A DNA stretch of 64,000 bases from Bacillota bacterium (GTDB lineage: Bacteria; Bacillota; Clostridia; Acetivibrionales; JAEZXR01), in assembly GCA_023419605.1 (NCBI GenBank), contig JAEZXR010000119.1, positions 1 to 64,000 of the forward strand, written 5' to 3'. Shown here one piece after another: positions 41,643 through 60,746 of the stretch (the stretch's first letter is position 1; each line of letters opens with the position of its first letter). A program made the translations under genes and the position numbers. The notes beneath the pieces were generated by a model, which had not been told where the DNA came from, ran no database searches, and saw nothing but the letters and a program-made list of their open reading frames with translations.

Positions 41643-41896
41643 AAGCTTCCGGCAACCGCCGGATAGTTTATGCGAATGAAATTTCTGTTATTGACAAATT
41701 ACAATACAAAATAACGTTTTAAGGTCATGAAAAAATAAGAATTTAATGGACAAATTTTTATGAAACCCCTTTACTTATTGCAAAAAATGGTATATTATAA
41801 GACATATATAGAAAAAATTCATTTTTTTGTAAGTATTGTAACTATTTTCGTATTGTATGGAGAATAATGTTTGAAGTATTTGTGGGGTGATAATCA

Positions 41897-44800
41897 TTGG
41901 ACCAGATCATAGTTCATATCATTCACGGCGACATATTTAACGAATTCGATATTGAAAAGCTCCATAAAGATGCAATATCGATTGGAAGCCACGAATCCGA
42001 TGATATCTTTATTCAGTCGGATGTACTAAAGGCCAAGCACATTGTCATAGAAAAGAGATTAGACTCCTGGATCATTCTGGTTCCCCTCTTCCGCGGTCTA
42101 ATCTATAAAGACAAAAAGATTGATAAAAAGTTTCTTGAGGATGGAGATACGTTTACTATTCCGAATTCAGGGGATGAGAACATCTCCATTATCATCCTGG
42201 ATAAGCAGGAGTTTACCGCCAGTAACAAATCCGCCCGGTTCACTCTGAAGGATATAAATGAAATATCCATAGGAAAAAGTGAAAACAATCACATTGTATA
42301 TCGCAACAAACAGGTATCGGATCATCATGCAACAATCAAGATTACAGCAGATGGAGAGTTTCACGCTATCGCCAAAGAGGGCAACATTATGCACGTCAAC
42401 GGCCGGAGGGTGGAAGAAAAGCTTTTGAATCCCGGCGATGTGATCCATATCTGGCGATATAAGATCATATTTGATAAGACGTACATAACGGTATTTAATC
42501 TTGGGGGCAATACGGTTTCGGTCAATCATTTAAGAGAAGTACTATCCATGGAATCAACCTATCCGTTCTTCCAGCGATCGCCCCGGTTGGAGCCGCTGCT
42601 GCCGGATGAAGAGATTTCGATTCCAGACCCCCCGGGTAAGAGCAATAAGCCCAATACCGATTTCTCTTTCTGGCTTCAATTGTTTTTACCGCCGATGGTA
42701 ACGGTGCTTGCAGCTTTCGCATATCCCAGATCCATAGTTTTTACACTTCCCATGGTAGGGTCTACCTTAACGATTTCTTTGACGAACTATGTTTCCCAAT
42801 TAAGAAATTATAAAAAACGTGAAAAAAAGCGTACCGAGAAGTACATGGCTATTATCGATCGAATTGATTCGGATTTGAATCGAATTAAAACCGAGCAAAA
42901 GGATATACTTTTACGAACGCATCCAAGTTTGGATGAAAGCATGCAAATGGCGGTGGAGAAATCCAGAAGGCTTTGGGAAAGGGCCCAGGATGATATTGAT
43001 TTTCTTGACACCCGACTGGGGATCGGAAAAGCTTCTCTGTGTGTTGAAATAAAATACGAGGATTCGGAGATTAATCTGGATGAAGACCCGTTAAAGGATC
43101 AACCGAAGAATTTATATGATAAATACAGTATTCTTGATGAGATCCCTGTGACAGTTCCTCTGTATGAAGCCTGCACAGTAGGGATCGTAGGCATACGAAG
43201 CAGTATTATCAGTATTGTAGGAAGTATTATTTTACAAATTGCTTCCCGTCACTCTTATGATGAGGTGAAGATCGTTACGGTTTTCCCCAATGAGGAACAG
43301 GAGGAATGGAACTGGATAAAATGGCTGCCCCATGTCTGGGATGAGAGCAGAAAAAAAAGGTACATTTCCTGTGAGGCTGCTTCAACCCATGAAATGCTCA
43401 CTACCTTTAATGATATCTTAAAAAAGCGTGAAAACATCTTGCTCCAAGCCAATGAAGACAAGATTGAGAAGTTTCTTCCCCATTATGTTATCATTCTGGC
43501 GGACAGGGAAATGACTGAAAACGAAGCCATTATGAAGATCCTGATTGAAAACAAGAGTGTACTGGGCGTGTCCACCATTTTTGCCTTTGACAGAATGGAA
43601 TATCTGCCGAAGAATTGCCGATACATCCTGGAAGTAGGGGAGGCTGCCGGTACTCTTTATGAAAAAAAGAAATCCTCAAAAAAGCTGTCCTTCACCCCGG
43701 ACGTACTATCCAGGGACCAGACCGAAGCCTTTGCAAGGACCATGGCGCCCATAAGGCTCAGACAAATCGGTGCTGCGCTGGATATACCGAACAGCGTACC
43801 CTTTCTTGACCTTTTCGATGTTAACACCGTTGAAGGTTTGAATGTTATTACAAAATGGTCCAATAGCGAAACCTTCAAATCGCTTGCGGTTCCCCTGGGA
43901 ATTCGCGATGGCGGTGAAAAGCTGCTGCTGGACCTCCATGAAAAGTATCATGGACCTCATGGACTCATTGCGGGAACAACCGGTTCCGGGAAAAGTGAAT
44001 TGATGCAGAGTTTGATTCTTTCTTTGGCGATTAATTTTCATCCCCACGATGTTGTATTCGTCTTAATTGATTATAAGGGTGGAGGAATGGCCAATTTATT
44101 CGAGGGGATGCCGCATTTGGTAGGAACCATTACAAACCTCGACGGAAACCAGATTACCCGATCCCTTATTTCTATAAAAAGTGAAATAAAAAAAAGACAG
44201 GGACTTCTGGGGGAATACAAGGTCAATCATATCGATGGATATCAGGCACTTTACAAGCAAGGAAAAGCCTCCAAGCCGCTGCCGCATTTATTTATAATCA
44301 TCGATGAATTTGCTGAATTAAAATCGGAACAGCCGGAATTTATGAGGGAGCTGGTAAGCGCGGCGAGGGTCGGAAGAAGCTTGGGTGTACACCTTATTCT
44401 GGCCACACAAAAGCCTTCCGGCGTAGTGGATGATCAGATTTGGAGTAATGCGAGATTCCGATTGTGCTTGAAGGTACAGGGAAGAGAGGACAGCAACGAG
44501 GTATTGAAGCGGCCGGATGCAGCAAATATCAAGCAGCCTGGAAGAGCCTATTTGCAGGTTGGAAATAATGAGATGTTTGAGCTTTTCCAGTCCGCCTGGA
44601 GCGGTGCGGAGTATTCCCCCAATGAAAATGGCAGCCAACGTGAAAAAACCTTGCTGAGGGTGGACCTGGAAGGGAAAAGAAAGCCTTTGTTTGGCTTTGA
44701 GAAGAAAACCAGGGAAAAAAGTGGAGTTACACAGATTGATGCTGTTATAAAGGAAATTATCAATACCGCCGCAAGAGAAAACATTCCAAAACTGGATGGC

Positions 44801-46483
44801 CCATGGCTGCCACCTTTGCCGGAGACGGTATACCTGGGGGACCTGTTGGGGAAGGATTTGAAAAAGTGGGATGGCTGCACCTGGGAAGCAGAGGACAAAT
44901 GGATTTGCCCTGTTATTGGGTTGGCAGACAGCCCTCATGAGCAAAAACAGTTCCCGGTTGCCATTGATTTGGGCAAGGAAGGGCATTTGCTGATATATGG
45001 GGCTCCCGGTACGGGAAAGACAACTCTTTTAAATTCATTAATTACTTCTTTGGTACTTACCTATTCACCGAATGATTTGAACCTGTACATTTTAGACTTC
45101 GGCGGCAGGACCTTCGGTATTTTCTCGGATTTGCCCCACGTCGGCGGAGTTGTCATGGGCGATGAGGATGAAAAGCTGAGTAAGCTGATGAAGCTGCTGA
45201 AAAAGGAAATTGAAAAGAGAAAACGGCTTTTTTCCGACGTGGGTGTGAGCAGTTTGTCCTCCTATAGACAGGCTGTAGGGAATAAAATGCCTGCAATCCT
45301 GCTGGTACTGGATAATTATTCGGCCCTGGCGGAATTATATCCCGATGTAGAGGAGTCCTTTGTACAACTGTCGAGAGAAGCGGGAAACTATGGGATTCAC
45401 CTGGTCATAACGGCCAATAGTACGTCGGCCATACGTTATAAGGTATCCCAGAACTTTAAACTGGCCATTGCACTTCAAATGACGGATAAGGGCGATTACA
45501 ACAGTATTATCGGTAAAACAAACGGACTTGAGCCATCCCCGGTGAATGGAAGAGGGCTTGTAAAGGCAGGCATTCCTGTTGAATTCCAGACTGCACTGCC
45601 TGTAGCCGGTGATAATGAAGCGGAAAGATCCGCAGAGATGAAGAGCTTGTTTGAGAAAGTCCGTGTTTCGTGGAAGGGGAGAAAAGCGAAAAGCATTCCG
45701 ATACTTCCGGACGTACTCAGATACAAGGATATGCTTGAATATGATGAGCTTAAGTCTGAGATACAGGCGGATAAAAATCTTATTCCTTTGGGTTTGACAA
45801 CGGAGGATTTGGACCCTGTATTTGTTGATCTCAGCGAGACGGGCTGTGTCATGGTGACAGGACAGATTCAAAGCGGAAGAACGAATGTTTTAAAATCCTT
45901 CATTTCATCCTTAAAGGAAAGGGAGGGATTAAAGAGCTGCTATATTATTGATTCCAACAATACCGGATTATATCAGTACAGGTCTGTTTTAGAGCCGAGA
46001 GCCTACATAACGGATGGAAGCGTATTATCTTCAGTGATGGAGGAGATTGTGGAAGAACTGGATTCAAGGAAGAATGACCTCATAAGCAGAAGAAGGGATT
46101 CGGAAACGGAATTCGATGAAAAGAAATATTTGGAAAGCTTGCCGCAAATCATTTTATTTATTGATGAATACAGTGATTTTATCAATATGGCGGATGAAGA
46201 TACCAAGAGCAGCATAGAAAAAATACTGAAAAAATATAAAGGTTTAAAATTCTGTATGGTTATCAGCGGTCTATCGGATGAAATATCTGCAAATAGTTAT
46301 GACTCCTTTACAAAAGCGATGATAGAACAGCAAAACGGGTTAGTGATTGGGGGTAGTTTCGATCAGCAAAGGGTTTTCAATTCCAGAATGCCTTATGCGG
46401 AACAGAGCAGGATTTTAGAAATCGGCGAGGCTTACTATATCACGAAAGGAAAAACCAGCAAAATCAAGCTGCCATTGGTGTAA
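41897..46483 (+). CDS. essC: Type VII secretion system FtsK/SpoIIIE-family ATPase EssC (YukBA-like) with N-terminal FHA domains
   Basis: 1528 aa. Two FHA-like segments at the N-terminus, 2 TM helices, then three P-loop ATPase domains (GxxGxGKSE; the second reads GTTGSGKSE with D-box IIIDEFAEL). Confidence 0.88.
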   Translation: MDQIIVHIIHGDIFNEFDIEKLHKDAISIGSHESDDIFIQSDVLKAKHIVIEKRLDSWIILVPLFRGLIYKDKKIDKKFLEDGDTFTIPNSGDENISIIILDKQEFTASNKSARFTLKDINEISIGKSENNHIVYRNKQVSDHHATIKITADGEFHAIAKEGNIMHVNGRRVEEKLLNPGDVIHIWRYKIIFDKTYITVFNLGGNTVSVNHLREVLSMESTYPFFQRSPRLEPLLPDEEISIPDPPGKSNKPNTDFSFWLQLFLPPMVTVLAAFAYPRSIVFTLPMVGSTLTISLTNYVSQLRNYKKREKKRTEKYMAIIDRIDSDLNRIKTEQKDILLRTHPSLDESMQMAVEKSRRLWERAQDDIDFLDTRLGIGKASLCVEIKYEDSEINLDEDPLKDQPKNLYDKYSILDEIPVTVPLYEACTVGIVGIRSSIISIVGSIILQIASRHSYDEVKIVTVFPNEEQEEWNWIKWLPHVWDESRKKRYISCEAASTHEMLTTFNDILKKRENILLQANEDKIEKFLPHYVIILADREMTENEAIMKILIENKSVLGVSTIFAFDRMEYLPKNCRYILEVGEAAGTLYEKKKSSKKLSFTPDVLSRDQTEAFARTMAPIRLRQIGAALDIPNSVPFLDLFDVNTVEGLNVITKWSNSETFKSLAVPLGIRDGGEKLLLDLHEKYHGPHGLIAGTTGSGKSELMQSLILSLAINFHPHDVVFVLIDYKGGGMANLFEGMPHLVGTITNLDGNQITRSLISIKSEIKKRQGLLGEYKVNHIDGYQALYKQGKASKPLPHLFIIIDEFAELKSEQPEFMRELVSAARVGRSLGVHLILATQKPSGVVDDQIWSNARFRLCLKVQGREDSNEVLKRPDAANIKQPGRAYLQVGNNEMFELFQSAWSGAEYSPNENGSQREKTLLRVDLEGKRKPLFGFEKKTREKSGVTQIDAVIKEIINTAARENIPKLDGPWLPPLPETVYLGDLLGKDLKKWDGCTWEAEDKWICPVIGLADSPHEQKQFPVAIDLGKEGHLLIYGAPGTGKTTLLNSLITSLVLTYSPNDLNLYILDFGGRTFGIFSDLPHVGGVVMGDEDEKLSKLMKLLKKEIEKRKRLFSDVGVSSLSSYRQAVGNKMPAILLVLDNYSALAELYPDVEESFVQLSREAGNYGIHLVITANSTSAIRYKVSQNFKLAIALQMTDKGDYNSIIGKTNGLEPSPVNGRGLVKAGIPVEFQTALPVAGDNEAERSAEMKSLFEKVRVSWKGRKAKSIPILPDVLRYKDMLEYDELKSEIQADKNLIPLGLTTEDLDPVFVDLSETGCVMVTGQIQSGRTNVLKSFISSLKEREGLKSCYIIDSNNTGLYQYRSVLEPRAYITDGSVLSSVMEEIVEELDSRKNDLISRRRDSETEFDEKKYLESLPQIILFIDEYSDFINMADEDTKSSIEKILKKYKGLKFCMVISGLSDEISANSYDSFTKAMIEQQNGLVIGGSFDQQRVFNSRMPYAEQSRILEIGEAYYITKGKTSKIKLPLV

Positions 46484-46568
46484 AAACATAAAATCGGCAG
46501 AAGCAGCAAGTCATTTATATAATTATAGCTGCTTCATAAAAATATCTACATATTCAATGATGGAGGGC

Positions 46569-46814
46569 ATGAAAATTATGGATATGGTTATCGTAACCAT
46601 CAAATCACAGGAAGGGAAGCAGCTGATGGATATAGAAGTTCCGTTTGATATTACGGCTGAAGAACTGGCCGCCTCACTGGCAAACTATATGCAGGTGAAA
46701 GAGATAAAAGGTTTGAGGGCAGAGCCGCTAAAAAGAGTGCTCATGAATCATGAGACACTTAAGGAGGCCGGCGTGTGGGAAGGAAGCCATATAATCATTG
46801 AGGGTGCCCATTAG
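46569..46814 (+). CDS. esaB: EsaB/YukD-like small ubiquitin-fold T7SS protein
   Basis: About 80 aa directly after essC; beta-grasp-like pattern (VIVTIKSQEGKQLMDIEVPFDITAEEL). RBS GGAGGG. Confidence 0.6.
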   Translation: MKIMDMVIVTIKSQEGKQLMDIEVPFDITAEELAASLANYMQVKEIKGLRAEPLKRVLMNHETLKEAGVWEGSHIIIEGAH

Positions 46815-46900
46815 AGGCAGCAAACCAAAAAGTCATAAATTTCCGGTTAATTCTAGATACCCGGATCGAATAAAAACAAAAAATGAAAGGGTGGTACATA

Positions 46901-47197
46901 ATGGCAATCGGTACTATAAGGATTACTCCCGAGCAAATAAGGGATGAGGCTACAAAGTTGAAAGGTCTTTCAGACCAGCATGATGGAGTTTTTAAACAAA
47001 TGACAAACTTGATTAATGCACTGAGCAGTCAATGGGAAGGTGCTGCCATTGAAGCATTTTTGCAGTCCTTTACCAATGCGAAGACGGAACTGGAGAAATT
47101 CAGAAAATCTATTGACGTGTTCGAAAAGGACATGAGAGAGTCTGCAAGAATACTGGAAGAAACAGACAAGGCGCTGGGTACACAGTTAAAAAGGTAG
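46901..47197 (+). CDS. esxA: WXG100-family protein (EsxA-like secreted T7SS substrate)
   Basis: 98 aa helical hairpin with WXG (SSQWEGAAIEAF) near the centre. RBS AAAGGGTGG. Confidence 0.8.
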   Translation: MAIGTIRITPEQIRDEATKLKGLSDQHDGVFKQMTNLINALSSQWEGAAIEAFLQSFTNAKTELEKFRKSIDVFEKDMRESARILEETDKALGTQLKR

Positions 47198-47270
47198 TTT
47201 GCTTGTGGCAATGGCTGCACACCTGTGTGTAGCCATTGCGAACCTTATTAAGTTTTGAAAGGTGGATGCT

Positions 47271-47567
47271 ATGACACGCATTAAAGTGAATGCAACTGAA
47301 TTTAAGGCAGTAGCAAAGAAATTCAATTCCGCCGCTGAACGCTGCTCCAAGATTCAGGAAAAATTAAAAACTGCGTCCGATGATTTATTGGGGCATTGGA
47401 GCGGCAAGAGCAAGGAGGCCTTTTCGACCGAGTATAACACGCTGTATAAAAATATGTATAATTACAAAGACGTGTTGGAGTGCATAGCAAAGGATTTGGA
47501 TACTATTGCGGTACGTTTTGAAGAAGCCGACAAGAGTTTGAAAGATGGCATGGAAAAGACTACGTAG
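47271..47567 (+). CDS. WXG100-like protein (second Esx-type partner)
   Basis: 98 aa helical protein with HWSGKSKEAF (WxG) at mid-sequence. Confidence 0.65.
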   Translation: MTRIKVNATEFKAVAKKFNSAAERCSKIQEKLKTASDDLLGHWSGKSKEAFSTEYNTLYKNMYNYKDVLECIAKDLDTIAVRFEEADKSLKDGMEKTT

Positions 47568-47600
47568 AACAAATTGTGTGATATAGGGTGGAGGATGAGA

Positions 47601-49211: not shown

Positions 49212-49225
49212 TAGGAGGTAATCAG

Positions 49226-49630
49226 ATGAAAGAAGGTAGCTATGCAGTTTACAAAGGAAAGATTTATGAGGCTGACCTGTCAACAGATCCAAAGGAAAAG
49301 GGGCTGATCATGCTGATCTCATATGATGAATCGGACTTAAACAATGGTTTCGTCAGGGATAGGATATTTGGCATAATTAAAAATGTTAGAAGGGATGAAT
49401 TAACTACCGCATATTATCTTCAAACCTATGCTAAAGTTCAAGGCGTTAGTGTTAAAGTCACCGAGATACAGGGAGATAACATCTACATATATTCGAACGA
49501 TTACAATACTTTTCAGAAGTTGGGTATGGAGCAGTACGAGCCCCTTGTATACCATAAATGGATAAAGAAGGATGCTGTTGAGACAATGTGGGAGGAAAAG
49601 AAGCCGATTTGGGGTTTCATGAATGCATAG
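49226..49630 (+). CDS. Candidate immunity protein for toxin 1 (134 aa)
   Basis: Starts 15 nt after the toxin stop and has an AGGAGG RBS. Small acidic cytoplasmic protein; the call rests on position only. Confidence 0.45.
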   Translation: MKEGSYAVYKGKIYEADLSTDPKEKGLIMLISYDESDLNNGFVRDRIFGIIKNVRRDELTTAYYLQTYAKVQGVSVKVTEIQGDNIYIYSNDYNTFQKLGMEQYEPLVYHKWIKKDAVETMWEEKKPIWGFMNA

Positions 49631-49642
49631 AGAAGGTGCTGC

Positions 49643-49969
49643 ATGGTTCAACAATATGAAAATGAATTTTCTATAGGCTCAAAGGATGGAGAAATATTAT
49701 TTTACGAAGATAAAAGCTGCAAGATTAATTTTACAGTGATTGATTTCAGAGATTCCGTATTATGGATTGCCGTTGAAAAAACAGTGGAAAAAGCAAGCGA
49801 TGAAGAACGAAAGCTTTCAAAAGAGCAAAAATTCGAATTCTACAGGCGCTTGGCTTCCTACTTCAAATTACATGGCTTTAATAGCGGGATCTGTGTGGAT
49901 GACTTTAAAGAGGTCATTCAGGAGGATATGGAAAATATAGATTGTACCAGGGACATATTGGAACTATGA
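49643..49969 (+). CDS. Small hypothetical protein (108 aa), possible immunity or orphan module
   Basis: Tightly packed after the previous gene; no recognisable motifs. Confidence 0.4.
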   Translation: MVQQYENEFSIGSKDGEILFYEDKSCKINFTVIDFRDSVLWIAVEKTVEKASDEERKLSKEQKFEFYRRLASYFKLHGFNSGICVDDFKEVIQEDMENIDCTRDILEL

Positions 49970-49987
49970 TCATTAGCTGGAGGGAAT

Positions 49988-50539
49988 ATGGTAAAAGTAA
50001 CAACGGAACTGTGTGAAGACCAGATAGAAATGGGCTGGAAATATATAAGCTTTTCCAGGGAGAAAGAAAAATTAGTATTCTTAGTCGAGCCAATGATGAA
50101 TAAGGAAGATATCGCTTATATACCTGGTGATAATGCATGGAAAGAAAGCGCGCCCTATTGGGCCAAGGACAAAAAGGAAGAAATATTGCGTACAATAAAG
50201 TCGGTACCATGGAATCGCAGGATACAGTGGATAGAGGATGAGGATACGCTAATTACAGCGGTTCCGAGAGAAAAAAGTCCGTTATTGAAGGGCACCCTGG
50301 AAACAACGGAGGCAGGACAGGAGTTTTTGAAGTTGAATTTATTTGATCCCGGATCGGAAATACCCTTTGAACAGGTTCATGAGTTGTGGCGCGTTCTGGA
50401 GAAAAGATTTGCGGAGCAAGTCCGGGGTGAAGTTACAATTTACGCCAGTACAATCGTTGAAGGTAGTGTTTTTGAAGGCGTTTCGCTGCCTGTGTTGATG
50501 GAAAATAAAAACGCAGTTTTAACGATAGTAGGAAATTGA
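49988..50539 (+). CDS. Hypothetical protein (183 aa)
   Basis: Clean ORF with a GGAGGG RBS and acidic composition. Confidence 0.45.
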   Translation: MVKVTTELCEDQIEMGWKYISFSREKEKLVFLVEPMMNKEDIAYIPGDNAWKESAPYWAKDKKEEILRTIKSVPWNRRIQWIEDEDTLITAVPREKSPLLKGTLETTEAGQEFLKLNLFDPGSEIPFEQVHELWRVLEKRFAEQVRGEVTIYASTIVEGSVFEGVSLPVLMENKNAVLTIVGN

Positions 50540-50787
50540 GAACAGGGAAGTCGGTTATTTTATTTATTTCTTGTAAACCCGTAGTATCACGTTGTTAATA
50601 GTAAGAGTTACTGCTTTATTTCTTATGCTGTTAATTTTGCGATTTTAGCAGTTGTCAGAAGAGATGAAGGCAATAGCTTTATTTTATGATTCCATTTTTT
50701 AAAATATTTTCAATATAAAGGCTGTGAAGATGAACATTATTATTTTATATAAATGCAGTTCCAAAAAATGTAAAGGGGATGATAAAA

Positions 50788-51153
50788 GTGAACCGTTACC
50801 AGATAAAGTCCAGTATCAACGGAGCGAATAATGCCATTGGGCATATTCGGCAAGCAATCAATCATGCCGGGCAGGAAAGCGGTTTTTTGCGTGACGCCTC
50901 CGTGGAAATCCAGAATGGATATAAGGGTGCGTCAAGTGCCGGCATCAGTGAGAAAATCACAAGCTACAGCAGAGAAACAAGCAATCAATCCAATGAGATG
51001 TCCAACGAAATACGAAGCATACAGTCTATTGTCAGTGATCTTCAATATCTTGACAGACAGTTGGAAGAACAGGAAAGAAGGGAAAGAGAAGCACGGGAAA
51101 GAGCTGCAAGAGAAGCCAGAGAAAAAGCGGGAGGACTAAGCTATGGACGCTGA
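50788..51153 (+). CDS. Small helical protein with C-terminal RERE repeat (possible T7SS Lap-like accessory)
   Basis: GTG start 9 nt after GGGGA. About 120 aa helical protein ending in EEQERREREARERAAREAREKAGG. Overlaps the following TPR gene. Confidence 0.45.
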   Translation: MNRYQIKSSINGANNAIGHIRQAINHAGQESGFLRDASVEIQNGYKGASSAGISEKITSYSRETSNQSNEMSNEIRSIQSIVSDLQYLDRQLEEQERREREARERAAREAREKAGGLSYGR

Positions 51154-52498
51154 GGTGAAAAAACTAAGTGCAGAGGAATTAAATAAAATGGGACTGGTTT
51201 TGATGCAGGCCGAGCAAGTGGAGGAAGCATTAAAATACTTTAACAGAGCTCTTGAAGCGGATTCGGAATATTTACAATCCTATTATAATAAAGCAATGCT
51301 CTATTTAGTTACGGAAGAGTATGATGAAGCCCTGGCGTGCTATGATGAAATTTTGTGCAAAGATCCAAAACAAGGGGAAGCGTGCTATCATAAAGCCAAT
51401 CTGTTATTTTTCTACAAGGAAAATAGCAAGGAAGCGGTGGAGTTATATAACAAAGCCATTTGTCTAGGTGAAAAAAATGAAGACATTTACTATAACCTGG
51501 GATTATGCATGGAAGCTTCCGCTCTGAATGAAGAGGCACTTAAATGGGTTGAAAGAGCAAGCAGAATCAATGAAAAGCGAACCGATATTTTGTTAAAGAA
51601 ATCAGAATTGCTGACTTCATTGAAAAGATATGAAGAAGCCATCGAGTGCTATGATCAAGTGCTGATGATTGAATCGGATAACGAAGAGGCTTTCCATTTT
51701 AAGGCCATCCTTCTGGGAGAGACGAAGCGGACGGAGGAAGCTTTTACGGTATTGGATAAAGCTGCGGAAATCATTGGGGACAAGGCGATATTCGAATATG
51801 ACAGAGCCTTGCTTTATGAAAACCAGGGTCAATATGAAGAAGCTTTATCCGCCGTAGATAAGGGATTGGAGCTCGATGACCGCAATACCCTGCTGATCGT
51901 AAAGAAGGGATCACTGCTTGCCATGGCCGGCAATTATGAAGGAGCCAAGAACGTGTTCGATAAGGTTTCAGAAATAGAGCCGGAAAATGTCGAGGGAGAG
52001 TTCAATAAGGCAAGTATACATATTTTGTTGAAGGAATTTGAAGAAGCGGACAAGCTATTTGAAGCCATCCTCCAAAAGTGTCCGGATGAAAATCCCTATA
52101 AAATTAATTCCTATTATTACAAAGGCCTTGTGCTTCAAGGGGCGGGCAAATCCCAAGAGGCTAAAAAAGCCTATGAAACGGCGCTAACGAACTATAGTGT
52201 CCTTTCTCTTACTTACACGCACGATGCACAGCTTATGCTTCTGAAGGCAAATACCCTCAGGGACCTGCAGAGGTATCAGGAGGCGGAAGAGCTGTATGAA
52301 TATGTCATTGACCTGAATAAAGATATGGCGGAAGCGCATCTCATGCGGGCAAAAAATTATATTTACCTTGGGAAATTGAAGGAAGGGAAAAAGGAAATTG
52401 ATCTTGCATTGGCCATAAATCCGGCCTATAAGGGTATTGTTGAAATTGATGAAGAGTTAAAAAGGGTTTTTAACAGCCATGAATTTGGGAAGGTGTAA
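51143..52498 (+). CDS. Tetratricopeptide-repeat (TPR) protein
   Basis: About 12 tandem 34-aa repeats with W/LG/Y/A/F/A/P spacing (e.g. AMLYLVTEEYDEALACYDEIL). RBS GGGAGGA. Confidence 0.8.
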   Translation: MDAEVKKLSAEELNKMGLVLMQAEQVEEALKYFNRALEADSEYLQSYYNKAMLYLVTEEYDEALACYDEILCKDPKQGEACYHKANLLFFYKENSKEAVELYNKAICLGEKNEDIYYNLGLCMEASALNEEALKWVERASRINEKRTDILLKKSELLTSLKRYEEAIECYDQVLMIESDNEEAFHFKAILLGETKRTEEAFTVLDKAAEIIGDKAIFEYDRALLYENQGQYEEALSAVDKGLELDDRNTLLIVKKGSLLAMAGNYEGAKNVFDKVSEIEPENVEGEFNKASIHILLKEFEEADKLFEAILQKCPDENPYKINSYYYKGLVLQGAGKSQEAKKAYETALTNYSVLSLTYTHDAQLMLLKANTLRDLQRYQEAEELYEYVIDLNKDMAEAHLMRAKNYIYLGKLKEGKKEIDLALAINPAYKGIVEIDEELKRVFNSHEFGKV

Positions 52499-52791
52499 TG
52501 ATGGATAAGATTGAGATCGATATTTCAAAAATACGGGACACCGTGACATTGTACAGGAGTTGCAGGACTGAATTGGAGGAAATGCTTAAGGACCTGAATG
52601 CCAGCATTGAGAAGTTAAAAGCCAATTGGGAGGGGGAGGCTCAGAAGAGTTTTTTTGAAAATCATTTCCCGACATTTTCCGATAGCGTAGCGAAGCACAT
52701 AAGGATGATCGCTTTTCTTGAAGGAGAGCTCCAGTCCACGGCAAATGACTTCCAGGACCTGGACAGAGAGCTACGGTCAAAGCTCCTTTAA
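52498..52791 (+). CDS. WXG100-like small helical protein (NWEGEA motif)
   Basis: 97 aa; WxG lies between two helices. The start overlaps the TPR stop (TAATG). Confidence 0.6.
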   Translation: MMDKIEIDISKIRDTVTLYRSCRTELEEMLKDLNASIEKLKANWEGEAQKSFFENHFPTFSDSVAKHIRMIAFLEGELQSTANDFQDLDRELRSKLL

Positions 52792-52891
52792 AAATGTTTA
52801 TTGGCATAGTTAATGAAATAAGGCTATTAAAGCTTTTTAAGCAGTATGGAGGATGCCAGGTAGCCTGGCATGTAATGGGTGGGGGATGAGA

Positions 52892-54412
52892 ATGAGTGGA
52901 GCAGCTTTAAGCATGAACAGTTCAATCATAGGTATATCCTTCGACAGAATGAATGCAGCAAAGAAAAAAATATACAGAGCACAAGAAGAAGCACAAGGGG
53001 AGCGGGACAGCCTGTCAAGGGCCATCAGCAGTCTGCAGGTAGAGGATGGCAGGCTCAGGCAGAGAGCAGAAGCACTAAACAGGCTGCGCAGCAGGATAAA
53101 TAACCGAATGGCTGAACTGCAAAGAATGGGAAACCATGTAGAATATGCAGTGCAAAGATTCAAGGAAGTGGATAACCAACGGGCGCAGAAGATAAAGACA
53201 GGAGGCTGTGAAGTCAGAAAAGCTGTGGGTATTCCCAAGGAAAGTGGAATATTCGGCAATATCGTCAGCGGCTTGGTTTCTATTGTTGATAGGGGAGCAA
53301 GGGCATGGTACAATACAAATAAGGCAGTGATCGATGGGGCCAAGTTTGTCTTTGGCAAGGGATGGGAAGCTATAAAATATGGTGCAAAAGCGGTAGGAGA
53401 TTTCTATGAGGATCATAAGGTGCTGATCAACAACATCGCTACCATTGCACTGGAAGCAGCATCGATCGCGCTGACAGTGGCAGCCGTTACCGCTCTTTCG
53501 GTAACGGGTGTGGGATTGGTGGTGGCTGTGGGGATTGCAGCAGCCGGGATCGCATACAGTGCCAGCAACATCATCGATTCAGGCGTTAAAATCTATAATT
53601 ATTGTACAACCGGTGAGGAGAAAGGCTTTAACCCGCTGCAAAAGGGATTCCAGGCAGTGCTGGGCGACGAGCTGGGTGAGAAGGTATATAATTATGCCGG
53701 TATCGCTGTGGCTGTGGCAGATGTGGGCGCCGGGGCTGTCAGCATGCTAAAGGCGGCCAAGCAGGCAAAGACTGCCTTTAGCCTTACAAAATCGGTGAAA
53801 GAAGCGGGCAATGTTCTAAAAGAGTTCGGGCAAAAAGGGGTACAGCAACTGAAGAATACGGCAAAGGAGATGATCGAGAGCGGGAGCCAGCTGTTTAAAA
53901 AGTCTGAAAGTTTGGTAGATGCGGCTACAGGGACCAGGTTCTCCGATAAAATGCTGGATTTTGGCAAGGTTGATATGCCTGTGGTGAAGGAGACCCCGGT
54001 ACAAAGTAACTTTAAGGCTGTCATGAATGGGTCGGATACGGGAGTAAGTAAGGTTAACAGCAAAATAGAGATTGTTGATAAAAATAATAAAACTTTCAAA
54101 ATAAATGATTGGAGTGACTACCCTGACGATTATGTTCCTTTGCCAGATAAAAATAAAACTTGGGAGTTACTTGAGGGAGATGCCTATAACGATGCAAGAA
54201 AAGCAGCCAATAATGCAAATGCTAAAATTACTAAGCAAAATCCTGACATCAGAGCAAACGAACTTGAGATTCATGAGGTAGAACCTGTTAAATTTGGGGG
54301 AAGTCCGACTGACCTTGCTAATAAAGTAGGCATTCAAGGAAAGGCACATAGAAAATATGTTACCCCTTGGTGGAATAGAATCAGGGATGCTGTCAAAGAG
54401 GAACTGAAATAA
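52892..54412 (+). CDS. T7SS-associated polymorphic toxin 2: same N-terminal module as toxin 1, C-terminal HNH/beta-beta-alpha-Me-type nuclease domain
   Basis: N-terminal 300 aa are paralogous to 47601-49211. The C-terminus LEIHEVEPVKFGGSPTDLANKVGIQGKAHRKYVTPWWN fits the H..E..P...GG.....N.......H pattern of an HNH-like nuclease. Confidence 0.72.
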   Translation: MSGAALSMNSSIIGISFDRMNAAKKKIYRAQEEAQGERDSLSRAISSLQVEDGRLRQRAEALNRLRSRINNRMAELQRMGNHVEYAVQRFKEVDNQRAQKIKTGGCEVRKAVGIPKESGIFGNIVSGLVSIVDRGARAWYNTNKAVIDGAKFVFGKGWEAIKYGAKAVGDFYEDHKVLINNIATIALEAASIALTVAAVTALSVTGVGLVVAVGIAAAGIAYSASNIIDSGVKIYNYCTTGEEKGFNPLQKGFQAVLGDELGEKVYNYAGIAVAVADVGAGAVSMLKAAKQAKTAFSLTKSVKEAGNVLKEFGQKGVQQLKNTAKEMIESGSQLFKKSESLVDAATGTRFSDKMLDFGKVDMPVVKETPVQSNFKAVMNGSDTGVSKVNSKIEIVDKNNKTFKINDWSDYPDDYVPLPDKNKTWELLEGDAYNDARKAANNANAKITKQNPDIRANELEIHEVEPVKFGGSPTDLANKVGIQGKAHRKYVTPWWNRIRDAVKEELK

Positions 54413-54431
54413 AAAGGAAGGATGTAGATGC

Positions 54432-54851
54432 ATGGATTATAAAAGTAATAAATACTTTAAAGATCTTGATTTTGGTAATCATCATCCTATTACAATTGAA
54501 GATTTGAACGAAGTCGAAGATGCTGTGGGGATTAGTTTCCCACAGCAGTACAGAGAATTTATGCTATTTTCTAATGGTGCAGTTGGTGAAATTGGTAACA
54601 GCTATTTAACCATATGGGAACTTGAAGATGTTCAGGATTTTTATGAAGATTGCTGTGAAGGTGATTTGGCTAATATAGTTCTATTTTCATCTGATGGTGC
54701 AAAGGTCGGCTATGGGTTTGATAAAAGCAAAAGTGGAACTATTGTTTCAGTACCGTTAGATTCACTTGAAATGGACTATGTAGAATTTTGTGCCAATACA
54801 TTTGAGGAATTTATGGAATATTTATATAATTATAACTGGGATGAAGAATAG
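54432..54851 (+). CDS. SUKH/SMI1-KNR4 family immunity protein
   Basis: ISFPQQYREFMLFSNG motif (FP..Y..FL..NG) and about 140 aa size; lies directly after the toxin with an AAAGGAAGG RBS. Confidence 0.75.
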   Translation: MDYKSNKYFKDLDFGNHHPITIEDLNEVEDAVGISFPQQYREFMLFSNGAVGEIGNSYLTIWELEDVQDFYEDCCEGDLANIVLFSSDGAKVGYGFDKSKSGTIVSVPLDSLEMDYVEFCANTFEEFMEYLYNYNWDEE

Positions 54852-54888
54852 CTTTAGAAATTATCAACCGAAGGGTGAAGGTGCTAAT

Positions 54889-55137
54889 ATGAGTAGTGAA
54901 AAACAGCATAACGCATACGATGAAGCAAAAAAAAATTGTAACATTGCAAATAGGCAATTAAGAAAAAATGACCTAACTTTAAAAGGATTGCAAATACACG
55001 AAATCGAGCCTATAAAGCTTGGGGGCAGTCCTACTGATACATCAAATAAAGCTTTTCTTCCTCGTGATAAACACGCAAAGGTAGTTGTATGGTGGAACAA
55101 AAAGATAAGAGAAGTTAGGAAAAGTATGGGGGAATAA
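54889..55137 (+). CDS. Orphan HNH-like toxin C-terminal cassette (82 aa)
   Basis: NAYDEAKKNCNIANRQLRKNDLTLKGLQIHEIEPIKLGGSPTDTSNKAFLPRDKHAKVVVWWN is homologous to the last ~85 aa of toxin 2. Own RBS AAGGGTGAAGG. The longer ORF from 54790 overlaps the upstream immunity gene. Confidence 0.5.
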   Translation: MSSEKQHNAYDEAKKNCNIANRQLRKNDLTLKGLQIHEIEPIKLGGSPTDTSNKAFLPRDKHAKVVVWWNKKIREVRKSMGE

Positions 55138-55139
55138 GA

Positions 55140-55553
55140 GTGGATAATAAGTACGGTAATCTGTTAGACAAAATTGAGTTGAATCTTCCCTGCTCCATGG
55201 AAGCTATTAAAGAAGTAGAAAAAAATCTTGGATTTACTTTTCCAAAGGATTACTTGGACTTTCTTCTAACAAGTAACGGGGGCGAAGGCTGGGTGGGAGA
55301 AGATTCGTATCTGTCACTATGGAAAGTAGATGAAATTGTGGCTTTAAATGAAGCATATGAGGTAAGTGAGTTTGCTCCAGGCCTTATACTATTTGGCTCA
55401 GATGGAGGGTTAGATGCCTATGGGTTTGATATAAGGGATGAGAGTACGGCAATAGTTGAAATACCATTTATAGGTATGGATTTAAGGGAAGTAAAGAATT
55501 GTGGAAACACTTTTGTGGAGTTCTTAGAGTATTTATTACACAGAGGTTTTTAA
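55140..55553 (+). CDS. SUKH/SMI1-KNR4 family immunity protein
   Basis: FTFPKDYLDFLLTSNGGEG motif; 137 aa. Confidence 0.75.
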   Translation: MDNKYGNLLDKIELNLPCSMEAIKEVEKNLGFTFPKDYLDFLLTSNGGEGWVGEDSYLSLWKVDEIVALNEAYEVSEFAPGLILFGSDGGLDAYGFDIRDESTAIVEIPFIGMDLREVKNCGNTFVEFLEYLLHRGF

Positions 55554-55556
55554 TCC

Positions 55557-55979
55557 GTGTGGGAAAAACTATTGTCGGATATTAGAAAAGTCGAGGAAAA
55601 ATACGGGGATTCCCTTAATACTCCAGCGTCAAACGAGCAAATCGAGCTTTTAAAAAAAATAGTTAAGGAAAAGTTTGGTCACGTTTTACCTGAGCAATAT
55701 GTCAATTTTTTAAAAACGGTTAATGGGCTTGAATTTAACGGGTTTATATTCTATGGAGTTGATAGTTCATTGCTTGAGGTTCAAAATAATCAAACAGCTT
55801 ATGGATATGTTGATACAAATGAAATTTGGTACGAAAATGAACATCAAAAGCAATATATGTTTTTTGGAGAAAGTAATATAAGCGGGGATTGCTTTGATTT
55901 ATCAAACGGAGTTTATGTTGAACTTGATAACCCATTAGGGACATTAATGTATACATTTAATGATTTTAACTCTATATAG
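55557..55979 (+). CDS. SUKH-superfamily immunity protein (third copy)
   Basis: HVLPEQYVNFLKTVNGLEFNG motif; 140 aa; GTG start 3 nt after the previous stop. Confidence 0.65.
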   Translation: MWEKLLSDIRKVEEKYGDSLNTPASNEQIELLKKIVKEKFGHVLPEQYVNFLKTVNGLEFNGFIFYGVDSSLLEVQNNQTAYGYVDTNEIWYENEHQKQYMFFGESNISGDCFDLSNGVYVELDNPLGTLMYTFNDFNSI

Positions 55980-56470
55980 GGAAAGGCACTTAAAGACAGT
56001 CTTCTTTGATAAAGTGCAACCAAGAAAGTAAATATATCAGACAAAGTCTTAATGGAGATATTCTCCATTGAGACTTTGTTTATTACTCCCATTGGCAAAA
56101 CGTTCAAAGCCGAAAATTCCCTTTATTAAATAGATAACAGGGATTTCTTTTAAATAATTACAAACTATTACAAAAAATGGTATTTAACAATAATTTTCAC
56201 AAAAAACTGGTCCATAAAAAACATTATTTATCGAAATTTGTCCAAAATAGCTTGACATAAATGCAAGTTTTTGGTAATGTATTTATAAGGACAAATGTTG
56301 ATGAAATCTCAGAAGCACTTGCTAACTGTAGTTTTAGTTAACAGTGTTCTATTCAAAAAAGCAGTAATGAATCTTTATTTATCTATGACCCGGAGGGTCT
56401 TCAAATATAAATGTCACCACACCGAATAGTTCTAAAGTGAATGATTGTTTTGATCAGGGAGTGGAATGTC

Positions 56471-57553
56471 ATGCATATCAAAAAAGTATTTCTTATAATA
56501 GCAGCCTGTGTGCTGATACTGTTATTATGTGTAAATGTATTTCAATTTGTATTTTGGAGTGGAAAAGCCAAACAACTGGAGGCCTCTTATACGGAACAGA
56601 TAGGAGAACTGGAGGAAAGGCTCGGAAGTATTGGACCCATGGCTCAGGCGTGGACTGTAGCCAAACAGGTAACACCGGGCCAAAAAATCACACAGGAAGA
56701 TCTGAAACCCATTCAAGTGTTGAAAAAATCTATGGAAGATGCATACATAACAAATCCAAAAGAAATCCTCGGTAAATTCTATAAAATATCTATTCTTCCG
56801 GGAACGCCTATCACAAAAGGTCTGGTTATGGAAGAAAAAATCAAAAACTCATTGAGACAGTATGATGTTGTAGCCAATACGATTCCCATCGGGCTGAAGG
56901 CCGGAGATTATATTGATTTCAGGTATCTGATGCCCAAAGGCGAAGATTATATAGCGATGACGCACAAACGGGTGGAAGCGGTACATACAAAAACCGTAAC
57001 TCTTCACCTGTCGGAAGAAGAAATCCATGTTTATCAAAGCATGCTGGTAGACTACTTTTTAAAGGAAGGCAGCTTGCTTTATATGACAAAATATCTAGAA
57101 CCGGGTGTTCAGGAAGCAGCAGAAACCTACTATCCAGTCGATGAAAATATTTTAAACGTAATGTTGATCGATCCAAATGTAATTGATAAGCTTGAGGCTG
57201 CTGTCATTAAAGGCAGCAGGGATATATTAAACACGACAGATAAAAGTATTGAAGATCTCATCAGAAGCAAGATAAGCACCGGCCGGGCATCGATTCAGGG
57301 AAGTGTAGATGCTGCAAACGCTGTATATTGGGATAGATTGGAAAAGGCAAATAAAGAGAAGGATTTACAGCAAGGGGAAGTTACAAGTGTACCACCCCAG
57401 CAGCAACCGCAAGCAGAGGCAAAACAATCTCAAACTCCTGTGACGGGCAATCCATCGGCCAACACTTCAGCACCACCGGCAAAGACGGAACCACAGGAGA
57501 ATGGAAATACAAATAATGGGAAACTGATTATGCAGGAAGGGATCGTAGAATGA
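56471..57553 (+). CDS. CpaB/RcpC-like Flp-pilus assembly protein (N-terminal TM helix, SAF-like domain, Gln/Pro-rich C-terminal tail)
   Basis: TM helix, then a segment VAKQVTPGQKITQEDLKPIQV..ILGKFYKISILPGTPITKGLV typical of the SAF domain of CpaB. Low-complexity PPQQQPQAEAKQSQTP tail. Confidence 0.6.
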   Translation: MHIKKVFLIIAACVLILLLCVNVFQFVFWSGKAKQLEASYTEQIGELEERLGSIGPMAQAWTVAKQVTPGQKITQEDLKPIQVLKKSMEDAYITNPKEILGKFYKISILPGTPITKGLVMEEKIKNSLRQYDVVANTIPIGLKAGDYIDFRYLMPKGEDYIAMTHKRVEAVHTKTVTLHLSEEEIHVYQSMLVDYFLKEGSLLYMTKYLEPGVQEAAETYYPVDENILNVMLIDPNVIDKLEAAVIKGSRDILNTTDKSIEDLIRSKISTGRASIQGSVDAANAVYWDRLEKANKEKDLQQGEVTSVPPQQQPQAEAKQSQTPVTGNPSANTSAPPAKTEPQENGNTNNGKLIMQEGIVE

Positions 57554-58907: not shown

Positions 58908-60746
58908 ATGACAAACATAGTACTCACCATCATCACCCTGCTGGGAGGCGGGACTGCGCTGTACTTGCTCTACATCAAAGCCAAAAAGGAGCGGCCGGAT
59001 TATAAACCCTCAAATACTTTCACCATGGAAAAACTGTTGGACATTGTAAGGAACAGTCTCCTGGACCTGGTGAAGGATGAGAGCTTTGAAGGCCTGGAAG
59101 ATGAAGAGGAGTTTGAGAGTATATACAAACGTAAAGCAAGGATACAGGAAGCGATACGTAATTGTGTGCATGGCATTGACTCCGCGAAAATAATTGTTCA
59201 GGATTTGATCAGAAACATTATAGCGGAGAAGCTTCCGGATGAAGCCTCTGTACTTCAGTTAATTGATTTTAATTCCCATGATCTGGAGCCGCGAATAAAA
59301 TTTGAGATCCTCATGTACTTCTTTAAAAAGTATTATGGCAAGGATGCTTTGGCCGAATTAATCGAAAAATATTATCTGGACCGAGAGCGGTATGAGATTG
59401 AGGAAAAGCTGGAACCAAGCTATTTAATTACGGAAGACGACATCAATGATATTTACGCAAAGGAATCTATTGAATTGAATTACAGTGTAATGATCGATAT
59501 CGTAACGGTGTTGATATACCAGCGGTACAAAGGGTTTGGCATTGTGGATACCATCAGGGAAATGAATATAAACGGATTTAACTGTGGTACTTCCGGGTCC
59601 ATATTAAGCAACGTGGGTTCCGTGGAAATGGATGTCCCAAGAGCGCCGAGATCCGTATGGTTGTATTTCAGAGGGAAATATATTCATTTAAAATTTTTAA
59701 ACTTTGGGACAGAAGAAGAATTAAGAAGAGTGGTGCAGCTGCTTTGCAGGTACAACAATCCCGGACCCTTAACGGAAAAGCGGGGATATCTTGTAAATAC
59801 AATGTATGATAAATCCCGTGTTCTGGCCTTACGGCCACCGGCTTCCGAATATTGGGCGGTTTTTGTCCGGAAGTTTTCACTGTCGGATCAATCTACGGAA
59901 GCACTTATAAATAAGCCTTATACAAAGAATGCCTACCTTGCCGTTAATCTTTTGATCTATTTGATGAAGTGCGAAGTTACCTGTGCTGTCACCGGCAGGC
60001 AGGGTTCGGGAAAGACCACACTCATGGCGTCACTGGTTAAATTTATAGACCCGCGGTATACGATACGTGTTTTGGAAATGGCCCCGGAGCTCTACCTCAG
60101 GGAATTATACCCGGAAAGAAACATACTTTCCGTCCAGGAGACGGACTATGTATCGGCTACTGCTTTACAGGATGCTTTGAAAAAATCCGATGCAGCCGTA
60201 TCCATGGTGGGGGAGGTAGCTACAGACTCCATTGCAGCGCGTATGATACAGCTGGGCCAGGTGGCCTCATTGTTTACCATATTCTCACATCATGGAAAAA
60301 CACCCAAGGATCTGGTTTACTCCTTAAGGAACTCTCTGGTCAATGCAGGCGGGTTTACCAATATGCTGACAGCAGAGCAGCAGGTGGTGGATGTAGTGAA
60401 AGTGGACGTGCATTTGGATTATACGCCGGATGGGAAACGGTACATAGAAAGGATTTCTGAAATTATTCGACTGGATGAAGCCATACCGTATCCCAGGTAT
60501 GATGAGAATGATCCCGTAAATTCAATCAATGCCATCACGAAGGAATATTATACCCGGCAAACGGACCGGCAAACCTTCATTACCAGAGATATCCTTACCT
60601 ATGATGTGAAAACACATACCTATCATACTGCAGAATGGTTTTCAGAAAAGTTGACAGATTATATGCTGCACAATATATCGGAGCAGAATGCCAGCGATTT
60701 TAAGGAGTTTATTGTGAACCACTGGAAGGGAGTTGAGAATTTATGA
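58908..60746 (+). CDS. CpaF/TadA-type secretion ATPase (GspE/VirB11 superfamily) with ~230-aa N-terminal extension
   Basis: Walker A VTGRQGSGKTTLMASL, Asp box, Walker B and His box of T2SS/T4P-type ATPases in the C-terminal 380 aa. GGAGG RBS. Confidence 0.85.
   Translation: MTNIVLTIITLLGGGTALYLLYIKAKKERPDYKPSNTFTMEKLLDIVRNSLLDLVKDESFEGLEDEEEFESIYKRKARIQEAIRNCVHGIDSAKIIVQDLIRNIIAEKLPDEASVLQLIDFNSHDLEPRIKFEILMYFFKKYYGKDALAELIEKYYLDRERYEIEEKLEPSYLITEDDINDIYAKESIELNYSVMIDIVTVLIYQRYKGFGIVDTIREMNINGFNCGTSGSILSNVGSVEMDVPRAPRSVWLYFRGKYIHLKFLNFGTEEELRRVVQLLCRYNNPGPLTEKRGYLVNTMYDKSRVLALRPPASEYWAVFVRKFSLSDQSTEALINKPYTKNAYLAVNLLIYLMKCEVTCAVTGRQGSGKTTLMASLVKFIDPRYTIRVLEMAPELYLRELYPERNILSVQETDYVSATALQDALKKSDAAVSMVGEVATDSIAARMIQLGQVASLFTIFSHHGKTPKDLVYSLRNSLVNAGGFTNMLTAEQQVVDVVKVDVHLDYTPDGKRYIERISEIIRLDEAIPYPRYDENDPVNSINAITKEYYTRQTDRQTFITRDILTYDVKTHTYHTAEWFSEKLTDYMLHNISEQNASDFKEFIVNHWKGVENL

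Follow-up and report, generated by a model that had tools for sequence, protein, structure and literature searches.

We have analysed a 64,000-nucleotide (nt) stretch of the contig JAEZXR010000119.1 from a Bacillota bacterium (assembly GCA_023419605.1), which is referred to below as the window and to whose forward strand all feature coordinates refer. It carries a gene for a polymorphic toxin (toxin 2) that is followed by a gene for an immunity protein of the SUKH family (SUKH1), a short open reading frame (ORF) of 82 amino acids (aa) that encodes a cut-down form of the C-terminal toxin domain, or tip, and two further SUKH genes (SUKH2 and SUKH3). An earlier reading made from the letters alone (the sequence-only reading) had described these five ORFs in the order toxin, immunity, orphan tip, immunity, immunity; all of them are present at the coordinates listed in Table 1, and the C-terminal peptide of toxin 2 that was quoted there matches exactly. 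Our comparisons with loci in other genomes and metagenome contigs (designated L001-L067) have identified the tip, SUKH1, the 82-aa ORF and SUKH2 as a four-gene mobile cassette, and have mapped the boundaries at which this cassette would have replaced an earlier tip of the same toxin gene.

The toxin 2 ORF is open from an ATG at position 52853, which corresponds to a protein of 519 aa; gene callers place its start at 52892 (506 aa) on identical metagenome contigs, for which reason an exact look-up of the 519-aa protein returned nothing, and the residues of the tip are numbered here on the 519-aa ORF unless the alignment A2, which contains 18 close homologues, or the 82-aa ORF is named. The gaps between successive genes from toxin 2 to SUKH3 are 19, 37, 2 and 3 nt, and the five genes look co-transcribed because no terminator-like site lies between them. 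In a scan of positions 52400-56500, the number of promoter- or terminator-like sites was not above chance. A promoter-like TTGAGG-17-TATAAT (10/12) is found at 54802-54830, inside the 3′ end of SUKH1 and about 60 nt before the ATG of the 82-aa ORF. The GC content is about 35% across 54-57 kb versus 42-50% upstream.

All three immunity proteins score above the Pfam gathering thresholds for both SMI1_KNR4 (PF09346) and SUKH_6 (PF14568), and their assignment to the SUKH/SMI1-KNR4 proteins in the sequence-only reading is thus borne out. The SMI1_KNR4 model is matched by SUKH1 at E 5.9e-16, with a further match to the Smi1/Knr4 structure PDB 3D5P (E 7.7e-12), and by SUKH2 at E 6e-18, while SUKH3 is a member of the YrhA family (NCBIfam NF038335, E 7.6e-42, 142.7 bits versus a cut-off of 55). 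SUKH1 is 38% identical to SUKH2 and 26% identical to SUKH3. The motif FP..Y..FL..NG, which had been ascribed to each of the three, is present in SUKH1 and SUKH2 (in the form FP..Y..F[ML]...NG), but SUKH3 has LP and not FP.

Table 1. Coordinates of the toxin 2 locus, its genomic context and the mini-tip genes of compared loci (positions without a locus label are those of the window)
Feature	Positions	Strand	Description
Toxin 2	52892..54412	+	Polymorphic toxin
Constant N-terminal delivery region of toxin 2	52892..54049	+	93-96% nt identity to sister alleles L063 (to 54033) and L064 (to 54049)
Toxin tip domain	54068..54409	+	Residues 406-519; predicted ββα-metal (ββα-Me)/HNH-like fold
SUKH1	54432..54851	+	SUKH immunity gene
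82-aa ORF (orphan, cut-down tip)	54889..55137	+	Tip-domain-only gene
SUKH2	55140..55553	+	SUKH gene
SUKH3	55557..55979	+	SUKH gene of the YrhA family
Mobile cassette	54062..55536	+	1.48 kb: tip, SUKH1, cut-down tip, SUKH2
Left recombination junction	54050..54061	+	L064 homology stops at 54049; L004/L005/L009 cassette homology starts at 54059-54062
Right recombination junction	55537..55557	+	Cassette homology stops at 55535-55536; L064 homology resumes at 55558
WXG100-like small protein	52498..52791	+	Directly upstream of toxin 2; Pfam WXG100 E 9e-14
Toxin 1	47574-49211		
WXG100-like paralogue	47262-47567	+	Precedes toxin 1; Pfam WXG100 E 4.4e-16
Type VII secretion context	41897..47567	+	EssC-like FHA/FtsK ATPase, YukD, two WXG100 genes (Pfam)
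Mini-tip gene	L021:6690-6905		
Mini-tip gene	L023:6445-6663		
Mini-tip gene	L027:6729-6923		
Mini-tip gene	L029:6699-6884		
Mini-tip gene	L034:6728-6913		
Mini-tip gene	L035:6724-6900		
Mini-tip gene	L042:578-781		
Mini-tip gene	L051:1107-1295		
Mini-tip gene	L059:7001-7198		
Mini-tip gene	L061:2066-2260		
Mini-tip gene	L066:5001-5198		
Mini-tip gene	L067:5001-5204		

The existence of the cassette is apparent from three other loci, viz. those of an Anaerosolibacter metagenome-assembled genome (L004), Firmicutes bacterium ADurb.Bin419 (L005) and Pseudobacteroides cellulosolvens (L009), with which window positions 54059/54062-55536 align as a single collinear high-scoring segment pair of blastn at 80-86% nt identity. 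The L009 copy is located at the end of an RHS-repeat protein of more than 2114 aa, and the L004 and L005 copies have no delivery region attached. The cassette hence moves between genomes and delivery scaffolds, a type VII substrate in the window and an RHS protein elsewhere. Since three other genera have the whole four-gene block in collinear form, the orphan pre-dates its arrival at this locus. Between the four copies, at synonymous divergences (dS) of 0.4-1.3 for the four genes, the ratio of nonsynonymous to synonymous divergence (dN/dS) is 0.06-0.18 for the tip, 0.11-0.36 for the SUKH genes and, in pairwise comparisons at dS 0.46-1.2, 0.10-0.23 for the 82-aa ORF. All four cassette genes are kept by selection, and the 82-aa ORF, which lacks a delivery domain, is itself under purifying selection.

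The 82-aa ORF is homologous to residues 441-515 of toxin 2 (43% identity over 76 aa, E 5e-15) and matches the hidden Markov model (HMM) of the tip family at E 4.6e-31 over HMM positions 64-146 only. It keeps the helix and the ββα core of the tip together with the residues H37, K43, N53 and H62, and lacks the N-terminal ~35 domain residues (F.I.DWS.YP...P) as well as any delivery region. The ribosome-binding site of its own that the sequence-only reading had noted is confirmed as a purine-rich Shine-Dalgarno (SD) sequence (GAAGGGTGAAGGTG) before the ATG, which is conserved in the three other genomes, and each of the four copies of the cassette retains an orphan of 82-83 aa that starts at the same ATG behind a GAGG-type SD and has kept the H/N/H residues. 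The SD of SUKH2 is located inside the last codons of the 82-aa ORF, an arrangement which, with the 2-nt gap, amounts to translational coupling. In a neighbour-joining tree the orphan is placed in a different subclade from the toxin 2 tip and clusters with the catalytic tips. Its nearest full-length relatives found are 41-53% identical, and all relatives at ≥70% identity have the 82-83-aa form, in searches that were limited by pattern.

These observations bear on the origin of the ORF, which had been taken for a diverged copy of the toxin 2 tip. The homology is upheld, but the copy was not made at this locus. DNA alignment and a repeat search revealed no recombination junction or tract shared by the 82-aa ORF and either toxin 1 or toxin 2: DNA identity with the toxin 2 tip is about 55-60% and does not extend beyond the toxin domain, exact matches to either toxin reach 9 nt at most, and no repeat family links the ORF with the toxin genes. 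The boundary of the orphan/tip homology, where a junction had been anticipated, was aligned and shows none. One could nevertheless suppose that the ORF formerly served toxin 2 as its tip, was displaced downstream by insertion of the present tip and SUKH1, and persists as a silent spare that can recombine through shared sequence. Its homology to the tip, the tip switching seen at this locus and the order toxin-immunity-tip-immunity, which is the classical layout of orphan modules (PMC7790226; PMC3482391), all speak for such a history. However, we regard it as very unlikely, as the same block with the same 82-83-aa orphan occurs in three other genera, once on an RHS protein and twice beside no delivery gene, the ORF has neither a pre-toxin handle nor an exact match beyond the 9 nt, the alternative alleles L063 and L064 described below hold no orphan remnants, and a dN/dS of 0.1-0.2 is unexpected for a silent spare.

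A comparison in this regard can be made with the orphan modules of type VII loci such as OG1RF_11111/11113/11123 of E. faecalis (PMC7790226). These likewise consist of a delivery-less toxin-domain gene with its own immunity gene, placed downstream of a full-length toxin-immunity pair. The OG1RF orphans, however, share more than 75% nt identity with the full-length gene in a 5′ tract (PMC7790226), whereas the 82-aa ORF has no 5′ homologous tract and no close full-length counterpart that we found, and is a stable part of a four-gene cassette under purifying selection. The description of the ORF as an orphan toxin module is therefore apt in that a toxin-domain-only gene is followed by an immunity gene, and fails in respect of the absent pre-toxin handle and the selection acting upon it. 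That the ORF is instead a dead relic, a pseudogene that has remained open by chance, is the least probable of the explanations considered and in our judgement highly improbable: ~35 N-terminal domain residues present in nearly all full tips are missing and no Pfam family is matched, but the frame, the ATG, the SD and the catalytic residues have been kept in all four cassettes at the divergences given above. The orphan frames of related strains, whose disruption would have argued against a functional module, are intact, and the sister strains show one synonymous change in the orphan, whereas the adjacent SUKH3 broke.

The sister strains provide an allele series from which the history of the locus can be read. 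L001 is identical to the window, and L002 and L003 represent strains at 96-97% identity that share the cassette, in which the orphan carries the single change just mentioned. Between sister strains, divergence is 0.9% in the cassette versus 2.8-4.3% in the flanks, which comprised the toxin N-terminus, a tetratricopeptide repeat (TPR) gene and Tad genes (Fisher p ~1e-8), and is thus 3-4-fold lower inside the cassette. The low divergence of the cassette and the drop in GC content fit a recent horizontal arrival. In L064, the flanks of the toxin 2 locus are related to the window at 93% nt identity up to the left junction and 92.5% after the right one, and the C-terminus of toxin 2 is a classical HNH tip (QVHHKLPLDDGGTNAMDNLILIKNEPYHK), which matches the Pfam HNH model at a sub-threshold E of 8.5e-4 and is followed by a single SUKH gene, the orthologue of SUKH3 (92.5% nt identity). 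In a third allele, L063, an unrelated tip is accompanied by an Imm49-like gene, and homology to the window resumes at 56148. The region L063:7143-8475 encodes a tip of ~170 aa with a weak HamA-like Pfam match (E 0.003) and then the 267-aa Imm49-like gene, and is another uncharacterised toxin-immunity pair.

SUKH3 in the window is without its last 10 aa owing to a premature TAG relative to L064, and it is broken by a 303-bp deletion in L002 and by a frameshift in L003. It is the leftover immunity gene of the displaced classical-HNH tip, now redundant and decaying. The true relic of the previous allele is accordingly SUKH3 and not the orphan, as had been supposed. The cassette switching by recombination envisaged in the sequence-only reading has support in the sister strains, which carry other tips and immunity genes between flanks of 93-96% identity, with the difference that the exchange was a replacement of the whole cassette.

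The tip of toxin 2 belongs to a large family with the signature [EQ]IHE.xP[VI]KFGGSPTD..NK(7-8)H(6-7)WW, in which H474, N490 and H499 are the candidate catalytic residues and in which alignment A2 shows no variation at H69, E70, P73, K75, G77, P80, N85, K86, H94, W101 and W102. Of these, H69, E70, N85, K86 and H94 are invariant in 19 homologues, and H69, N85 and H94 recur in the orphan as H37, N53 and H62. When 1.84 billion representatives were searched with a profile, 952 tip-family proteins (E up to 1e-3) were retrieved, in all of which the domain is C-terminal, on carriers of up to 3006 aa that include RHS, TcdB/SpvB and LysM proteins; the HNH catalytic positions are invariant across about 950 clusters. 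The AlphaFold2 model of the tip (predicted local distance difference test, pLDDT, 95.7) consists of a β-hairpin and an α-helix, i.e. a ββα-Me core, that bears the conserved residues. The best profile match in the PDB is to the pyocin AP41 DNase, to whose HNH motif EIHEIEPVKFGGSPTDLANK...H is aligned, though this is not significant (E 0.38). Foldseek matches to the PDB are likewise not significant (best E 1.1), with Rhs2-CT and the DNases of pyocin S2 and colicin E9 at the top, and phmmer of the tip versus the PDB yielded nothing meaningful. On the basis of the model and the motif we conclude that the tip is probably an un-named clade of the His-Me finger (ββα-metal, HNH-type) superfamily and a putative nuclease. 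The proposal of an HNH-type nuclease is hence in accord with the fold and motif but not with the HMM searches, in which a nuclease match was absent, one half of what had been named as evidence against it; the Pfam survey that had been suggested recovered SUKH in all three immunity proteins and no HNH in the tip.

It could be argued that the tip has a ββα scaffold without being a DNase, and that it acts as an RNase or as a non-enzymatic toxic binder. The absence of a nuclease HMM match and the HE in place of an HH/DH dyad are compatible with this, and SUKH proteins are also known to neutralise deaminases and other toxins (PMC3482391). We nonetheless consider it unlikely, in view of the invariance of three HNH catalytic positions across the family, the fold matches to metal-dependent DNases, and the fact that loss of the first His marks a separate, non-toxin-like clade without a second immunity gene.

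Among known systems, the DNases of colicin E9/E7 and pyocin AP41/S2, which provide the best profile match in the PDB, share with the tip the spacing H-x7-GG-x6-N-x8-H and, like toxin 2, are protein toxins with a co-encoded immunity protein that blocks them. The polymorphic toxins of HNH/EndoVII fold with SUKH immunity (PMC3113570; PMC3482391) are similar in their ββα-metal tip, their varied scaffolds (type VII secretion system-type and RHS), the adjacent SUKH gene and the extra cassettes and immunity genes downstream. The tip differs from the clades held in Pfam (viz. HNH, WHH, LHH, AHH, GH-E, SHH, GHH, EHHH and DUF1994/DH-NNK), none of which was matched. Two candidate identities were tried and rejected. 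The Tox-REHH family (Rehh/RehhI), compared by its published description, resembles the tip family as a newly recognised and formerly unannotated group of divergent HNH DNase toxins on type VI, type VII and RHS scaffolds that is sometimes paired with SUKH; its active site consists of R, H-E, H and H with three metal-binding His and long insertions (bioRxiv 10.64898/2026.09.22.753552), whereas in the tip only two His, separated by 25 residues, are invariant and no Arg is conserved 6 residues ahead of HE. The DH-NNK toxins (DUF1994) have a DH dyad on strand 1 and two Asn and a Lys on the helix (PMC3113570), whereas the dyad of the tip is [IV]H-E, its helix carries a His, its N-K precedes strand 2 and the Pfam model is not matched.

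A survey of 43 genome loci and 7 metagenome loci, supplemented by several look-ups, showed that, with few exceptions among more than 45 loci across phyla, a SUKH gene lies directly 3′ of the tip. When each tip and the SUKH protein next to it were compared with the proteins of the window, immunity of the SUKH1 type was found with tips of the toxin 2 type in 15 of 15 cases and with orphan-like tips in none of 26, and immunity of the SUKH2 type accompanied all 26 orphan-like tips as well as 10 ambiguous ones. This co-occurrence of subtypes indicates that the toxin 2 tip is partnered by SUKH1 and the 82-aa protein by SUKH2, and suggests that each SUKH protein would neutralise its respective partner.

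In Planctomycetota, Proteobacteria, Gemmatimonadota, Acidobacteriota and Verrucomicrobiota, our analyses have identified a gene of 57-75 aa, here termed a mini-tip, directly after the SUKH gene of the same toxin family. The mini-tips represent a cut-down ββα core that has F, Y, W or L at the position of the first His (EIFEIQPVILGGSPTDP.NK..LTR..HI.AV.YWN). They are translationally coupled to SUKH, often with an ATGA overlap, are still found beside SUKH at loci with a truncated toxin or none, and retain 45-73% aa identity despite saturated synonymous sites. The family comprises at least 869 clusters, all of them unannotated 'hypothetical' proteins without a Pfam domain, and forms one clade from which the 82-aa ORF of the window is excluded. 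In L045:202-840, SUKH and mini-tip are in one frame without a stop codon (a 213-aa stop-to-stop ORF), and this fusion argues for a physical or functional link between them.

Since the 82-aa ORF shares the position of the mini-tips, directly after the first SUKH gene, an accessory role is conceivable for it, in which it would not be a toxin but a decoy or partner that binds the immunity protein, akin in role to the mini-tips. Such a role would agree with the monophyly, SUKH coupling and L045 fusion of the mini-tips, with the ILGG/KLGG-like and L.R..H..V features common to both, and with purifying selection on an ORF without a delivery domain. We consider it unlikely, though less so than the other alternatives, for the orphan retains H37, K43, N53, H62 and the preceding helix, groups with the catalytic tips and not with the mini-tips, and, unlike the mini-tips, has a coupled SUKH gene of its own after it, which an active nuclease would require.

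The delivery of toxin 2 is suggested by its surroundings. Toxins 1 and 2 are 66% identical over their first 328 aa and have unrelated C-termini. The family of this N-terminal region is rare (16 clusters in the database), and its members end in EndoU, Endonuclease_NS_2, NTP_transf_2 or WHH+colicin-DNase domains; this variety of C-termini indicates that the N-terminal region is the delivery module of a polymorphic toxin family. The shared region (52892-53870 and 47601-48560) contains a long hydrophobic stretch rich in Gly and Ala (IALEAASIALTVAAVTALSVTGVGLVVAVGIAAAGIAYSA). The locus contains three WXG100 genes in all, together with YukD and an EssC-like ATPase whose FtsK_SpoIIIE match has an E of 3.4e-72, the FHA, YukD and WXG100 models being also matched. 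From the gene context, toxin 2 is probably exported by this adjacent type VII secretion system, with the WXG100-like protein encoded before it as a likely export partner, judging by its position. The arrangement is reminiscent of LXG-domain toxins of the type VIIb secretion system with WXG100-like Lap partners, in which toxin genes with a constant N-terminus and variable C-terminal toxins lie downstream of EssC/YukD/WXG100 genes and a WXG100-like gene precedes each of them; unlike these, toxin 2 has an N-terminus of a rare family without a Pfam LXG domain and with the hydrophobic segment.

Taken together, our results make probable the following explanation. Toxin 2 would be a polymorphic antibacterial toxin whose last ~115 residues form a compact ββα-metal nuclease, and after export this tip would degrade DNA in target cells, while SUKH1 would block it in the producer and so protect the producer and its kin. 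The 82-aa protein may most simply be viewed as a stand-alone intracellular nuclease restrained by the translationally coupled SUKH2, the two forming an addiction-like pair that would keep the cassette and the SUKH2 immunity in place. The cassette would have entered by recombination at the two junctions (54050-54061 and 55537-55557), replacing a classical HNH tip of the L064 type, and SUKH3 would have been left behind by this replacement.

A number of observations weigh against parts of this explanation. Neither the tip nor the 82-aa ORF matches any nuclease model in Pfam to E 10 or NCBIfam to E 1, nine large tip-family members scanned likewise match no Pfam or NCBIfam nuclease family, and the tip has a Glu where the usual HH dyad has its second His. 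Three of five AlphaFold2 models of the 82-aa protein have a pLDDT of 71-75. Pfam finds no LXG domain (PF04740) in toxin 1 or 2, a PDB search gave no relative of the toxin N-terminal region, and EssC, YukD and WXG100 are the sole type VII components recognised near toxin 2, the evidence for export being contextual; no membrane component of the EssA/EssB/EsaA type was recognised among the ORFs scanned in 40284-57553. Lastly, the low divergence of the cassette could reflect constraint and not recent spread.

The type VII-like locus (40284-57553) also holds a TPR protein (51143-52498) and a 124-aa coiled-coil ORF, and is flanked by an amino-acid permease gene and by a Tad/Flp-pilus-like cluster (56441 onward, with a CpaF-like ATPase at 58908-60746). 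Pfam, NCBIfam and the PDB gave no match for the last ~220 aa of toxin 1. This gene is followed, within the region 47574-50539, by small ORFs of 134 aa (PF27768 UCP033725 on record), 108 aa and 183 aa, all three of which are candidate immunity or accessory genes.

The general architecture described here is already known: polymorphic toxins with SUKH immunity show it (PMC3113570; PMC3482391), as do the orphan modules of type VII loci (PMC7790226). New are an HNH-like tip family that had gone unrecognised, an orphan that travels under selection and has no recombination handle, and a fully resolved replacement event. The latter constitutes a base-resolved case of tip exchange, in which three alleles occupy one slot in one species with junctions mapped to ~10-20 nt and SUKH3 is caught at three stages of decay. 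The tip family shows that current domain libraries have missed a large group of HNH-like toxins whose partner is strictly a SUKH protein, and this matters for the annotation of toxin-immunity systems in genomes and metagenomes. The 82-aa ORF, as a conserved gene that moves with its cassette, indicates that 'orphan' toxins are not always spare parts, and the existence of His-less relatives elsewhere suggests that toxin-immunity systems have an accessory function so far overlooked. We tentatively raise the possibility, which we do not hold to be the likelier one, that the cut-down tip after SUKH is a working, selected component of HNH-SUKH cassettes, His-containing and with its own SUKH2 in Bacillota, and His-less elsewhere. 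If this is true, it would represent an undescribed third partner of a toxin-immunity system, possibly acting as a mimic of the toxin to bind the immunity protein or pass it on.

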